Shown here in pieces: positions 30,036-63,238 of a stretch of 64,000 nucleotides of DNA. The position numbers and the translations under genes were made by a program. This stretch comes from Eledone cirrhosa (taxonomy: Eukaryota), in the NCBI GenBank assembly GCA_964016885.1, contig CAXHJY010000162.1:1-64000 (forward strand). Direction: 5' to 3'. The notes beneath the pieces are model-generated. The model saw only the letters and a list, made by a program, of their open reading frames with translations. It was not told the origin of the DNA and ran no database searches. Every line of letters starts with the position of its first letter. The stretch's first letter is position 1.

Positions 30036-30272
30036 GACCGTTTTATATATATATATATATATATATATATATATATATATATATATATATATATATATAT
30101 ATATATATATATATATATATATATATATATATATATATATATATATATATATATATATATATATATATATATATATATATATATATATATATATATATAT
30201 ATATATATATATATATATAAAATATTAAACAAATAATGAATAAACAATTCCTTATATTAAACAAAAAAAGTT

Positions 30273-30422
30273 CATTATTTAACGATCGTTTCTAGGATAT
30301 ATATGTGTTAGAATTGGCATGCATAATCAACAGATCTATATACAAAATTATACAAAATTATACAAACTATCAAGATTAAATATACATACCAACACATATA
30401 TACGCCGTCTTCAGAAATAATG
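30273..30422 (-). ncRNA. Type I hammerhead with extended stem II (mirror copy)
   Basis: Reverse complement of 30758-30907. Confidence 0.7.
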
Positions 30423-30757
30423 AAGTATATTTATTGATAATAACAACAATTCAAAATTTCAGGTCCGTTTGGGAACAAAAATTGACCAATGAAAACACAA
30501 AGGGTTAAATGCAGTTCGGTGTGTGTATATACATGTAAAACCCTTACACATATTTTACAAAAATGTATGTATAATTTGTATACGCATACTAAAAGGATGG
30601 ATGCAAATACAAAATTTCAAGGTTAATGTCTCTGTAAGTTTATAATGCACAGATAAGATGCGTATTGACACAAGTATGAAATTAAATTAATTGGTCAATT
30701 TTTGTTCCCAAACGGACCTGAAATATTGAATTGTTGTTATTATCAATAAATATACTT

Positions 30758-30907
30758 CATTATTTCTGAAGACGGCGTATATATGTGTTGGTATGTATAT
30801 TTAATCTTGATAGTTTGTATAATTTTGTATAATTTTGTACATAGATCTGTTGATTATGCATGCCAATTCTAACACATATATATCCTAGAAACGATCGTTA
30901 AATAATG
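30758..30907 (+). ncRNA. Type I hammerhead with extended stem II
   Basis: cattattt CTGAAGA ...tatatatgtgttgg / ctaacacatatata... GAAA cgatcg TT aaataatg; 8-bp stem I, palindromic ACGATCGT. Confidence 0.72.
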
Positions 30908-31381
30908 AACTTTTTTTGTTTAATATAAGGAATTGTTTATTCATTATTTGTTTAATATTTTATCTTGACTCTGTATACCGTTTATCTTTCACCGAAAGTG
31001 ATTTTTCATTACATCTCTTCTTTCCATGATATCCGGAATACATTGAGTTCTTCATACGGATTGGACACTACCGTAAATTCTTGGTAGATTTATCTACATA
31101 TATATATATATATATATATATATATATATATATATATATATATATATATATATATAATAAAAAATTGAACAGGGACAGAACAGAGAGGCAGTACGACAAA
31201 TGTTTATTAGCTTCACGCTCAGGAGAGTGGAGGGTAGGTGGAGGACGACGTTTCGGGTAGGAGTTCAAAAGGTGTGTAGGGGAGTGGTGGAGAGACATAT
31301 AGCGAAAGGAAACGGTGCGAATGAAAAATTAACAAATAAAGACAAAATTATAATAAATAATAAATAAAAATATATATATAT

Positions 31382-59230: not shown

Positions 59231-60091
59231 AGGTTATTTTAACGTGCAATTGAACCTTGCTTAGTCAGTTCTAAATCTAATTTTCTGCAGTAAGTTTACA
59301 TTTTCTGTCAAATACTACATATGTTTACACAGTAAAGATTTTAAACATTCATAAAATGTTAAAAATAGCCATTACATTACAAATCATCGGAGAATATCAA
59401 ACACTGAATCTTGGCACCTGCTTCAGAGTTTTGTGCAGTTCAAAACTTACCTTAAAATAAGACTATGCCCTAGATTCAGTGTCTCCCACCTCTTCTAGAG
59501 TCTAAAAGGGATGGGAGACAGTGAAACGTTAATATTGAATCAACAGGGGCCTATTAGCTAGTTTTTGTTAGATTGATAGCCAGCTAAGAAGATATCAGTT
59601 CGTACCGAATATTTGAACGTAACAGAAAACATTAGAACACGAAAAAAATTAAAACTTCAGATTTGTTTTTGTTTGTTTTTTATAAAATTTTTTACATTTG
59701 ACTAAGTATAATATTTTAATCACAACTGTATAAATAATATTACAAATCTATCTATATTATAAAAGAAGAGCTGTTTCTCCGCCTCTCTGTCCTTTACACT
59801 TATATATATATATATATATATATATATATATATATTGGCTCCGGTGGCTGATAGCTTAATGACCGCTATTTTCAGTTAGTTGGCCTCTATAACGTATGTT
59901 AATTGCTCTGCTCTTCTTTTAGTTCATTGAGCGCTTGCCGCATATCTCGAAAATTGCGTTTCGCTTTGTTTTTGATCTCAGCCGAAATACGATCTCGCTG
60001 AAATTATATTTATATATATACATACATATATATATATATATATATATATATATATATATATATATATATATATATATATATATATATATAT

Positions 60092-60277
60092 AATAATTGT
60101 TTATACTTTTTGGCACAAGGCCAGCAATTATTCCAGTGCATTACTGGTACTTTATTTTATCGACCCCGTAAGGATGAAAGGCAAAGTTAACCTCGGCGGG
60201 ATTTGAACTCAGTCCGTAAAGGGAAGTAACTCTTTGCTGAAAAGCATGGCATCCGACCCTCTACCGATACTGCCGAT
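60092..60277 (-). mobile_element. Young tRNA-derived SINE
   Basis: Same family as 46422-46604. Confidence 0.9.
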
Positions 60278-60279
60278 AC

Positions 60280-63238
60280 TATTTATAGTTATGTATATAC
60301 TATAAACAACTATAAACAGGAAAGGTCAGTAATTTATTACTACCTTATAACCAGTAAGAGAAATAGTTCAATGTAAGAACATCAGTTGTTTTACAGAGCA
60401 GGAATATAAATTACACAATTATCAAAGTTATGTTCAAATCATTTTATTGCTGACAATCGTTTCTATATCTACTAAATGAAATTCATAAGAACCTACCCTA
60501 CCTCAATGGTGGTTTATACCGCGATGATGCACTACTCCTTATAGACTATACAGAATTTAATATAGAAAGAACTAGGAAACAATTACATAAAATTTTCAAA
60601 AACTTCAACTTAAGTATCACCTTAGATAAAAACACTAAAAACGTTAACTTCCGTGTTGCTACCCTTTGCCTGGACTCTAAAATATATACACCCTTTCATA
60701 AACCAAACGAAAAACTAATTTATGTGGATACCAACTCTAACCATCCTAAATCCATATTAAACTCAATTACTAAAATAATATCTAATAGAATCTCTAATCT
60801 ATCATTTAACGAAACCATATTTAACAATAATTCCCAATACTATAATGAGGCCTTAGCTAAATCAGGCCATAAAAATGAGATTGAATTTCTACCTATAAAA
60901 TCACATAGTTACAACATTATTTCTCACAATATGGCCACGAGGAAAAATAACAAAAATACTAGCCACACTAACTCTAATACGAAGGGTAATATCAAACTTA
61001 ACTCGCACTAAAATAAACACCACAATAATAATATAAACAGAAATACAAATACCTAAAAAAAACATTACAAAAAACAAAAATAGAAGAACTAATACATTCT
61101 TCAATCCCCCTTTCAATCTAAACGTCTCTACCAACTTGCCTAAGGCTTTCTTCTCAATCCTAGAAAAAAAATTCCCAACCGGCCACAAATACCATAATCT
61201 TATCAATAAAAATACCATTAAAATCTCTTACTCTACCACACCTAATATCGCATACCATATAGCTAGTAGTAATAAAAGGAAGATTAATAATTATTTCTAA
61301 CTAATTAAAACAGAACAGGGGGTAAACTTACAGAACATCATAGTACCTGTAAATCCTAGTAGCAATAATAATAATGGTAATAGCACTAATGAAATCAATA
61401 ACGACAACCATCAATACCCTAATGCTAGCCCTAACAACCAGACTTCTACACAACATAGTAACCGGCAAGCAAACAACCAGAATAACTGTAACTGTAGAAC
61501 AAATAGAACTTGCCCCTTAGGTAAAAATTGCTTAATCAAAGACATCATTTATTCATGCATGGTCAACACAAATAACTCTTCTAAAACATATATTGGCTCA
61601 ACTTCGAACTGCTTCAAGACGAGATACAACTCGAACCTCCACTATTTCAAAAATCACAATCTAGCCAACTCCACTTCTTTATCTAGTTACATACACTCTC
61701 TGAAAACTAGGAATAGACCATATACACTTCAATGGGAAGTAGTAGGTAGGGGTGCATCGTATAAACCACCGAATAAATTGTGTAACCTCTGTCTTCTAGA
61801 GACCCGTACTATAATCTTTTCGAAACTAGACCTAAATAGAAAATCAGTTTTCCTCATGCCGACACTCGTTCCATACTTTAAACCTAGCTGATAGTATATA
61901 ACAATGTCAGATTTGAATTCCTCACCACCATTAACACTTCACCGCTAGGACTTATCAGACCCCACAGCATCACAATCTTTGGCCAGCTCTTTCCTCTACA
62001 TAACTCCTATGTATCTCAAACCTTATACAATAACTATTAGAAATAAACATAAAGTTACCACCTTTTAATATAACTACTATAGCTTACTTATATACAGTAA
62101 TGGATATATAATATGTAGAGACATTTAATGTAATATGTGATAATAAATTATATATACATTTATAATTAAATATATAAATTAATAACATTGTATATAAGGG
62201 ATTAACTTTTAACATAATATGTATATTAATAACACAAGAGATTTAACTAATTGGACCTGTAAACAGCTATACATTTTTCCATAACTTATATCTTGTCCAG
62301 TAATTGATAGATAACAATGTAATGAGACCGTTAATGTATTATAGGAAAATAGACAGTATTTAAAATTAAATATAAATAAATAAATAAATAAATAACATTA
62401 TATAGAATAGATTCAAATAATTGATACTTTCCTATATAATTTAATTTAATTAGGTCCCCTTAATTTAATTTAATTAGCTCCCCTTAATTTTGGATCTCAT
62501 ACTCACTTCCGGAAATTAAACCGTTAGAAAAACTTGCTGTAGAACAACTCTAATCCATGGATAAGAATACAATAAGACCAATTTACAATCCATTGCTATA
62601 ATTAACTAAAAACATTCAATATAAACATTAACTAAAATATAATTTAACATATGTAATGGAAAAGATAACAATAACTTTGATACTCTCAACACATACACAT
62701 TTGAACACTACAGAAACTACCATCACATTACACCCACCATAAATGTTAATACACTAACACCTTTGCTTGATATGCTTGTATACCTGTATTATTTTATGTG
62801 ATACCTTTGCCATACAGTATTTATATATGCCTAATACCTTTGCTTGTTTCCTTCATATACAGTATATGACTAACGCATGTGCACTCTCTACACGCTTGCA
62901 TTTATACTGCTAGTGTCCTCATTCTTCCTCAATGCCTCTTTAATTATTAGACTATTCCCTTGTATTATCTGTCGCATGTATTCCACTCTGTGCTTTTAAT
63001 TTTAATTTAAATTATTGTACAATTCTCGTATAATATATGTCGCATCCATTCCACCCTATAAATACGAAACTGCTGTTCACAACATCAATATATATGTATC
63101 TATATGATTGTTCAGTTGAATAGGAGGTTAATTATATGTACAAACATTGCTAGTGCTCCGATGATTCCAAACAAAAGTTTGGAAGAAACGATTGTCAGCA
63201 ATAAAATGATTTGAAAATAACTTTGATAATTGTGTAAT
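60280..63238 (+). mobile_element. 5'-truncated Penelope-like element (RT + GIY-YIG) with inverted terminal segment
   Basis: GLYRDDA, PFHKPN..YV..SNHP, FNPPF, IKISYS..PNI, CNC.....CPL...C, IIY..YIGST..FK.RY, CNLCLLE; stops and frameshifts; 60410-60463 inverted at 63185-63238. Confidence 0.92.
63154..63200 (+). ncRNA. Hammerhead in the PLE 3' pLTR (CCGATGA core variant)
   Basis: tgct CCGATGA ttccaaac aaaa gtttggaa GAAA cgattg TC agca. Confidence 0.65.

Follow-up and report, generated by a model that had tools for sequence, protein, structure and literature searches.

The closest described counterparts of the hammerhead motifs considered here are those carried by Penelope-like elements (PLEs) of metazoans. 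The covered sections of Cervera and De la Pena 2014 (PMC4209133) report thousands of motifs per genome (~2,000-9,000), which fall into many families and sit mostly on truncated PLEs; pairs on opposite strands at distances of 100-700 bp and a palindromic helix III are described as well, together with a U3-A8 family in Schistosoma (~1,300 matches) and a 2-bp helix I in Drosophila virilis. For the Hydra clade of PLEs, the covered part of Craig et al. 2021 (PMC8557442) describes insertions in (TA)n with the same hammerhead design as here, including Hydra-1_Obim from Octopus bimaculoides; it lists 27 Hydra families, a small number of them outside cnidarians, and gives canonical hammerheads as universal in the clade. 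All Hydra rows in its file S2 have CUGANGA, and a U.U-closed stem II, a short palindromic stem III and NUU sites are found there. That source also describes a tail of 30-40 bp, often at one end only, and Frangieh 2024 (PMC11167929) traced the tail to two internal reverse-transcription start sites, with both target strands cut and extended. Core variants are treated in the covered sections of Perreault et al. 2011 (PMC3088659), which report covariation at U3-A8, closure by U10.1-U11.1 and, in a viroid, a U4C variant that supports infection despite low activity in vitro. Non-coding retrozymes without long terminal repeats (non-LTR retrozymes) have been proposed as PLE derivatives (PMC7229834; Li et al. 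2026 preprint 10.64898/2026.07.22.740005), the covered part of the preprint giving up to 120,000 copies for the axolotl in a genome of 28 Gb. Penelope expansions are known in octopus from two papers whose main texts, as far as covered, do not mention ribozymes (PMC13282606, PMC8967140).

In this study, we followed up an earlier note on a 64,000-nt stretch of the Eledone cirrhosa genome (assembly GCA_964016885.1, contig CAXHJY010000162.1, positions 1 to 64,000; hereafter the window), which had pointed to about ten ribozyme-bearing repeat families in 33 kb. The window is nearly all of an unplaced contig of 64,864 bp in an assembly of 2,996 Mb, and consists of nested repeats piled up in (TA)n tracts. 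With a probability of roughly 85%, we read its motifs as the 3' ends of many PLE families, mostly of the Hydra clade, and of non-coding derivatives of these, whose hammerhead would process tandem transcripts slowly and be dispensable for each single insertion. This picture is already published, down to the targeting of (TA)n, the palindromic stem III and the inverted pairs, and the zoo of families is in itself ordinary PLE biology.

Hammerhead motifs and the elements that carry them

Motifs were sought with a type I hammerhead descriptor consisting of CUGANGA, a stem II of at least 2 bp, GAAA, the closing pair of stem III, UH and a stem I of at least 4 bp or 5/6 pairs. It permits stem II regions of up to 130 nt and has a core of only 11 fixed bases; hammerhead numbering and family letters are our own or follow general usage. 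The region 30217-64000 holds 15 such motifs, compared with a mean of 0.21 and a maximum of 2 in 200 dinucleotide shuffles of 300-bp blocks, none of which (0/200) reached 15, so the shuffled control proposed in the earlier note came out in its favor. A separate test of stem I used a genome sample of 72 evenly spaced 10-kb segments (719 kb), in which 43 motifs were selected by core, stem II and perfect palindrome alone; 37 of the 43 have a stem I of at least 4 bp, while the same selection in shuffles gave 1.5 motifs, 0.05 of them with stem I. All of the positions named earlier are ends of motifs shaped like type I hammerheads, exactly or within 2 nt. Further motifs were found at 18187, 47975 (U3-A8 core) and 63796, opposite-strand partners at 30414, 36837, 43741, 51392 and 51898, and half a motif near 63365; a candidate at 24697 (CGGAAGA) was dropped, having no family support.

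The structural description given earlier held for most families and failed for some. The core CUGANGA...GAAA...UH is present in eight of the ten families, the exceptions being family C (39010, CAGAAGA, U4A) and family J (63154, CCGAUGA, U4C), each with its change family-wide; an explanation of 39010 and 63154 as single copies in decay was considered and rejected. Stem I reaches at least 4 bp in nine families and only 2 bp in family D (42079), identically in every copy shown. Stem III is self-complementary in seven (30758, 38080-type, 42079, 45675, 49862, 51508 and 63154) and not palindromic at 39010 (a 5-bp hairpin), 43967 and 52494, so that dependence on dimers is suggested by structure for seven of the ten and not for C, E and I. 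The families had also been called unrelated, which is overstated: those at 49862 and 51508 have a common stem I/III design and common tail words (by eye), and a 155-nt stretch of the 38080 family has 70% identity with the motif at 18187. The association with (TA)n stood: a (TA)4 lies at most 333 nt downstream of 18 of 18 motif copies in or beside the region, compared with 42% of random positions within 400 nt, the copy at 18187, outside the region, lying 567 nt from (TA)n. Rfam at gathering score gave no hammerhead match within the window, and its E-value scan, among 150 listed of 217 matches, gave miRNA-type matches on microsatellites or hairpins and one weak U4, with no hammerhead. Elsewhere in the genome, RF00163 (Hammerhead_1) was above cut-off for 18 of 74 scored candidates (those fetched belong to another family), and for none in 14 control genomes.

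Autonomous PLEs are the source of six of the ten families, which are their 3' ends truncated on the 5' side: four of the Hydra clade (A, C, G and J), one Neptune-type (D) and one Neptune/Nematis-type (I). In family J the hammerhead is joined within the window to a remnant of an open reading frame (ORF), as claimed earlier for the motif at 63154 and a body with reverse transcriptase (RT) and GIY-YIG domains. In family C the GIY-YIG domain lies 1.0 kb upstream of the motif in at least eight loci, with an open frame of 689 aa in locus L335 (ORF also in L281), and in family G about 1.0-1.1 kb upstream (L223, L231, L278), with a 750-aa ORF in L338. The ORF of family A is ~4.1 kb upstream of the hammerhead, and the tail of the element runs into the ORF start (L324, L326); the 3' untranslated region (UTR) in between is of low complexity and, at ~4.1 kb, far exceeds the total length of <3 kb given for Hydra elements. 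Links to ORFs were also found for family D (L266, L267), read from frameshifted copies only, and family I (L268, L270). Family H is probably a Hydra-clade 3' end as well, a Hydra-type ORF lying 2.5 kb upstream in one of six fetched loci (L349). With six of the ten families joined to RT and GIY-YIG ORFs, the large and diverse PLE/retrozyme population proposed earlier is on stronger footing than the earlier note could give it.

The proteins of A, C, G and J are 37-53% identical to one another and resemble those of Hydra-clade PLEs such as Hydra-1_Obim. RT is followed by a C-terminal GIY-YIG in a single ORF, seen as an open frame in C and G and in pieces in A and J; RW and DKT motifs occur in A, C and G, DKT in J and an RW-like motif in J by eye; and all four have a CxCx5C linker, no CCHH, CxxC before E and CxH after N (the CxH of J being taken from L275). 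All four are inserted in (TA)n, and the canonical hammerhead stands near the 3' end in A and G, with position 4 changed in C and J. We assign them to the Hydra clade by these features, as defined in Craig et al. 2021, with reference sequences compared by eye. Further likenesses to the covered Hydra descriptions are a stem II closed by U.U, a stem III that is short and palindromic, an NUU site in many cases, a truncated arm in inverted orientation and a tail at one end, whereas several lineages here number 10^3-10^4 or more copies and have fixed U4A, U4C or U3-A8 cores, tails of ~60-140 nt rather than 30-40 bp, and 3' UTRs of 1-4 kb. Families D and I resemble Neptune/Nematis PLEs in a Cx4CxxC linker before a GIY-YIG of CCHH type (CIDKKCITC in I; CSRPRCNTC in D, read across frameshifts) and a minimal hammerhead near the 3' end, family I also having YVDD and internal cysteines; judged from these motifs, they appear to be Neptune- or Nematis-type. 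Pfam named none of the PLE ORFs. A tree of endonucleases (ENs), built from those of this genome only, leaves 9 of 19 inner branches unresolved and gives no dating or rooting of the core changes. Locus L341 (2650-3090) holds four head-to-tail units of 107 bp, each a complete hammerhead of the G/H clan, in a minimal tandem array.

The anatomy of the insertions follows a common plan. The distance from motif to 3' end is 40-290 nt in every family, and two discrete 3' ends ~60-140 nt apart were seen in eight of the ten families examined, family D having one end and family B ends blurred by microsatellite-like sequence. We found 60 outward-facing inverted pairs, of which 53 could be classified: 46 combine a long and a short end (p ~2e-8 against 0.5), four are long+long (all of family A, whose query contained the tail) and three short+short. 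The pairs of A, G, H and I in the window are all long+short. Both orientations occur at 11 of 35 family I loci, and no opposite-strand pair was found in 40 loci of family D.

Four families differ from these in being non-coding. Families B, E and F, which belong to the ten, and the extra family L consist of units of ~444, 549, 490 and 340 bp, respectively (440-550 bp for the first three), in full or partial tandems. Arrays of B reach seven units at a spacing of 420-540 bp (monomers 420-550 bp), those of E three units, and F and L form partial tandems only; apparent fixed 5' starts in E and L proved to be artifacts of query ends. They have no ATG-initiated ORF longer than 73 aa, a GC content of 33-40% and one type I hammerhead per unit. 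By these sequence features they appear to be non-LTR retrozyme-like, sharing with metazoan non-LTR retrozymes the non-coding, head-to-tail monomers of 340-550 bp. Unlike those, they have the hallmarks of PLEs on open display, namely inverted arms, a (TA)n target and two 3' ends, and the majority of their copies are solitary or partial. Families L (63720-63740) and F (45800-45820) contain what we take to be a CTCF-core-like word, and a similar word stands just upstream of the hammerhead in B and K; perhaps the non-coding elements have spread a promoter or an insulator-like site in this form.

Altered catalytic cores and genome-wide scale

Departures from the canonical core at the level of whole families are confined to position 4 and the 3-8 pair, other single changes being at shuffle level or in one or two copies. 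In family C, all 73 aligned copies have A at position 4, as do the first 100 of the 23,974 matches in the genome; U4 occurs in only 104, so that the share of A4 is ~99.5%, and the four U4 copies fetched give the impression of scattered mutants. In two family C elements checked, CUGANGA does not occur elsewhere outside the coding region, and the UTRs of C and J likewise lack it. In the J clan, C4 is present in 96 of the first 100 matches listed of 6,115 and is kept between subfamilies that are 73% alike and have diverged at position 7, in loop II and stem III and in the base at the cleavage site; a further family has C4 in three of four copies. The third altered core belongs to family S, a Hydra-clade PLE with a U3-A8 core, a long stem II and a stem III of 5-6 bp with a palindromic loop (L143, L116, L192, L362-L367). 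Counted by hand, the first 100 of its 4,009 matches comprise 64 U3-A8, 32 C3-A8 and four U3-G8 cores, and all four bases occur at position 7. Many copies of family S are cut inside the motif, with 35 matches to its 3' part in the 719-kb sample. A lineage next to family C was considered as one that had lost its hammerhead, and this was rejected when a U3-A8 core was found before a long stem II. Across seven families, 0 of 77 core columns carry a variant common to several copies compared with 82 of 960 flank columns (Fisher p 0.003).

The motifs agree with metazoan minimal and PLE hammerheads, as covered in PMC4209133, in their many families, solitary occurrence on truncated PLEs, opposite-strand pairs, palindromic helix III, additional base after A9, U3-A8 family and 2-bp helix I. 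They differ in number, with ~2,000-9,000 per genome there and at least 60,324 exact matches in five families here, and in the presence of a U4A family, which the main text of that paper, as far as covered, does not mention. Natural core variants in the covered sections of PMC3088659, where U4A is not named, are rare single cases, and those here form families of thousands of copies. Our literature searches, with most subscription papers outside their reach, returned no report of U4A hammerheads and none of cephalopod hammerheads beyond Hydra-1_Obim. Within that reach, the scale of the population and its family-wide U4A, U4C and U3-A8 cores appear to be new. Lunse et al. 2017 reportedly describe very many variants linked to PLEs and cleaving as dimers, and may list position-4 changes.

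Genome-wide abundance was approached in two ways. The 719-kb sample contains 67 motifs with a canonical core compared with 4.3 in shuffles, and its bootstrap gives 1.7-3.6 x 10^5 motifs genome-wide. Calibration against exact counts was 2.3-fold high for family C (13 found, 5.75 expected) and 0.7-fold for B (4 found, 5.9 expected), and for this reason we state the estimate as 1-3.5 x 10^5; a first estimate of 79,000 copies of family C was dropped since the sample over-counts C. Exact patterns for five families matched 60,324 places in the genome, which is a floor: B 24,767; C 23,974; J clan 6,115; S 4,009; and D 1,459, where an 81-nt query had found no genome match and a longer one gave 1,234 candidates. 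The reversed patterns of all five gave no matches. Clustering of 331 motifs from 1.86 Mb of sequence produced 55 clusters, 27 with at least two members, one of these spurious. An abundant family outside the window (eight sample copies; L177, L204, L220, L223, L239, L242) has a 14-nt hairpin-capable stem III with a central palindrome. Retrozyme density in the axolotl, whose genome is otherwise put at 32 Gb, is far below the density here.

The window is a dense patch of this genome-wide population and no special locus. Motif density is 4.4 per 10 kb in the region and 0.93 in the sample mean (about five times), with 4 of 72 segments reaching at least 4; the whole window is mildly enriched (p ~0.006 by independent resampling, a test that takes no account of clustering or of the region having been chosen after the fact). 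Among 8,000 scored candidates, the public protein closest to the family C ORF is 56% identical, and at least 473 relatives were found at E <= 1e-30, nearly all without a name. These full-length Hydra-type ORF relatives (~40% identity) come from public metagenome and run assemblies, and with at least 473 of them the Hydra clade goes far beyond the 27 families of the 2021 list.

Features of the window

The hammerhead-bearing elements are listed in Table 1.

Table 1. Positions and properties of the hammerhead-bearing insertions (window coordinates)
Feature	Position	Strand	Hammerhead and remarks
Family A, left inverted-pair arm with short 3' end	30217..30685	-	hammerhead 30271-30424; stem II region 115 nt, stem III ACGAUCGU, GUU site; 3' end of young Hydra-clade PLE
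Family A, right arm, ~130-nt tail	30687..31098	+	hammerhead 30756-30909
Family A, older subfamily	33245..33446	-	decayed core CUGGAGA, C3 at 33431, GUA site
Family C copy	36768..37141	-	hammerhead-like motif 36792-36842, U4A core
Family B unit	37815..38391	+	hammerhead 38080-38122
Family C copy, 3' UTR of Hydra-clade PLE	38430..39084	+	motif 39010-39060; core CAGAAGA (U4A), U.U-closed stem II, hairpin stem III, CUU site
Family D, 3' end of young Neptune-type PLE	41923..42200	+	minimal hammerhead 42079-42110, ACGU stem III, 2-bp stem I
Family E, inverted arm	43506..43813	-	hammerhead 43620-43748
Family E array, 2.8 non-coding monomers of ~549 bp	43812..45361	+	hammerheads 43967-44095, 44516-44644 (broken, GACA replacing GAAA), 45063-45191
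Family F, ~490-bp non-coding monomer and 166-bp partial repeat	45481..46142	-	hammerhead 45675-45756
Family H relative, one copy seen	47970..48029	+	hammerhead with U3-A8 covariant core
Family B unit	49074..49596	-	hammerhead 49290-49332
Family G, 3' UTR and short 3' end of Hydra-clade PLE	49826..50960	-	hammerhead 49860-49930
Family G, inverted arm	50962..51110	+	hammerhead 3' half and ~90-nt tail
Family H arm, ~100-nt tail	51192..51456	-	hammerhead 51335-51399
Family H arm, short end, probably Hydra-clade	51460..51621	+	hammerhead 51508-51572
Family I arm with tail	51646..52204	-	hammerhead 51860-51902
Family I arm, short end; 3' end of Neptune/Nematis-type PLE	52195..52681	+	hammerhead 52494-52536
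Family B unit	53449..53721	-	hammerhead 53661-53705
Family J, inverted arm	60275..60463	-	hammerhead end and ~140-nt tail
Family J ORF remnant, stops and frameshift	60454..61888	+	RT GLYRDD and thumb 60454-61008; CxCx5C linker and GIY-YIG 61301-61888
Family J hammerhead	63154..63200	+	core CCGAUGA (U4C); 1.3 kb behind ORF; element end 63237 in (TA)n
Family S remnant, decayed	63362..63482	.	motif 3' half on minus, tail on plus strand; by eye
Family L, ~340-bp non-coding unit	63591..63888	-	hammerhead 63759-63802
Family K, 70% like family B	18097..18324	+	hammerhead 18182-18222; outside the range of the earlier note

Other repeats lie among these insertions. An uninterrupted ORF of 1,053 aa at 33449-36610 (-), with endonuclease and RVT_1, belongs to a long interspersed nuclear element (LINE) that we take to be RTE-like, a short inverted fragment of which lies at 39710-40500. 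Fragments at 46552-47808 (-) are presumably Helitron-like Rep/helicase by their motifs, and Pfam gave no match for them. A Tc1/mariner-like transposase fragment at 48277-48681 (+) has a weak DDE_3 match (E 0.002). The start of the contig (window 1-8673) is an 8.7-kb (TA)n-derived array with a G every ~17-20 nt on one strand only, and a repeat of ~170 bp that resembles a short interspersed nuclear element, with a tRNA-type B-box-like end, recurs at about 31390, 46430, 54240, 54470 and 60110.

Proposed function of the hammerhead and rival explanations

The reading that we prefer combines the observed anatomy with steps drawn from other PLEs. Judging from published work on those elements, the PLE protein would nick both strands of an AT-rich target, and reverse transcription would begin at two internal sites just downstream of the hammerhead. 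Two such starts would account for very short copies that keep the motif and for pairs of a long and a short arm. Since the hammerhead adjoins the 3' ends on their upstream side, it would be copied first and survive heavy 5' truncation, and that survival would explain the zoo. In the source elements, the hammerhead likely cuts tandem transcripts slowly, either as a dimer or with help from protein; a palindromic stem III would need two hammerheads that pair, which tandem copies or two RNAs could supply. Opposite-strand pairs supply no dimer in one transcript, so that most copies in the window are likely inert. PLE proteins may mobilize families B, E, F and L in trans, and the altered cores (U4A, U4C, U3-A8) may be tolerated, slower variants of a ribozyme that is useful in the long term and unneeded for each insertion. 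A run search for family C listed no RNA dataset. Contigs of four sequencing runs, which do not reveal strand, ends or level, were left out of the evidence; depth in run X4 is higher over the 3' half of the motif, and nearly identical pieces occur at low depth in runs labelled organisms B and C.

Several observations weigh against this reading, and some of them favor a rival one in which the hammerheads are vestigial or parasitic passengers, the PLEs inherit the fold and spread without cleavage, and the families with U4A, U4C or C3-A8 cores carry dead ribozymes and have multiplied all the same. In the work of Frangieh 2024 (PMC11167929), an anole PLE with a mutated hammerhead inserted normally in vitro, insertion being independent of hammerhead activity, and the ribozyme required the protein. 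According to the covered part of Craig 2021 (PMC8557442), Naiad PLEs proliferate without hammerheads, and parasitism of PLEs is raised there. In our own data, the C3-A8 subfamily, which makes up 32 of the first 100 listed family S copies, is estimated at more than 1,000 copies; a damaged core has thus spread, and cleavage may be dispensable. In family J the per-copy mismatch of the core (4.3%) is no lower than that of the flanks (3.7%), as expected of neutral decay after insertion, and the comparison of core and flank columns is biased toward a conserved core, since BLAST rows had to cover the core and the genome queries of B, F, H and I contained it. Long-term selection on A4 would be proved by a diverged sister of family C, but none is seen, the 73 copies being 82-100% alike. 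The 2-bp stem I of family D, the tie of family H to an ORF through one locus only, and the failure of an autonomous partner for B, E, F and L to turn up among the loci examined count further against the reading as a whole. The passenger explanation is nevertheless opposed by the retention of the core across at least 25 families with unrelated flanks and with proteins 37-53% identical, by the confinement of family-level departures to position 4 and the 3-8 pair, and by family J and its sister subfamily, which retain C4, both stems and a palindrome despite other changes. Overlapping with ours for families C and S, it is in our view unlikely, though it deserves more weight than the other alternatives.

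Alternatively, the conserved fold might serve mainly for pairing: two element RNAs would be joined by way of their palindromic stems III, a protein dimer would prime both target strands to give long+short pairs, and cleavage would be secondary. The palindrome in seven of the ten families, with self-duplex energies down to -11 kcal/mol, the 46 long+short pairs among 53, the predicted dimer of the anole PLE protein, which extends both strands (Frangieh 2024, PMC11167929), and the want of opposite-strand pairs in 40 loci of family D, which has the weakest palindrome, are all in keeping with it. Yet family I has no palindrome (+1.4 kcal/mol) and both orientations at 11 of 35 loci, Naiads make inverted repeats and tails without hammerheads (PMC8557442, as far as covered), and pairing alone fails to explain why catalytic bases are kept, which together make this role improbable. 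That the motifs are chance matches in AT-rich repetitive DNA is harder still to uphold. A core of 11 fixed bases with stem II regions of up to 130 nt does admit noise, and some sample matches look noise-like (4.3 of 67 expected), but the shuffles (0/200 reaching 15), the 72-segment sample, the stem I test, the reversed patterns (none compared with thousands) and the constant position of the motif before the 3' end in every family refute it, leaving it a negligible probability.

The role of PLE hammerheads is an open question (Craig 2021; Frangieh 2024). We put forward only tentatively the combined proposal that the hammerhead population of this genome, numbering 10^5 or more and arising from a burst of Hydra-clade PLEs, ranks among the densest known, and that family C would be a working U4A hammerhead in ~24,000-35,000 copies. 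If family C does work, either the monomer-type stem III or the PLE protein probably rescues the U4A change in the uridine turn, and the family would then offer, together with those having U4C, U3-A8 and C3-A8 cores, a natural experiment on whether PLE hammerheads must cleave. Because matched, recently active lineages with canonical, U3-A8, U4A, U4C and C3-A8 cores each exist in thousands, the rate of cleavage can be compared with spread. The long+short rule of inverted insertions gains a count here. This genome also illustrates that PLEs of the Hydra clade, whose description rested on 27 families, are able to dominate a genome of 3 Gb and yet go unseen by Pfam and, in the window, by Rfam.

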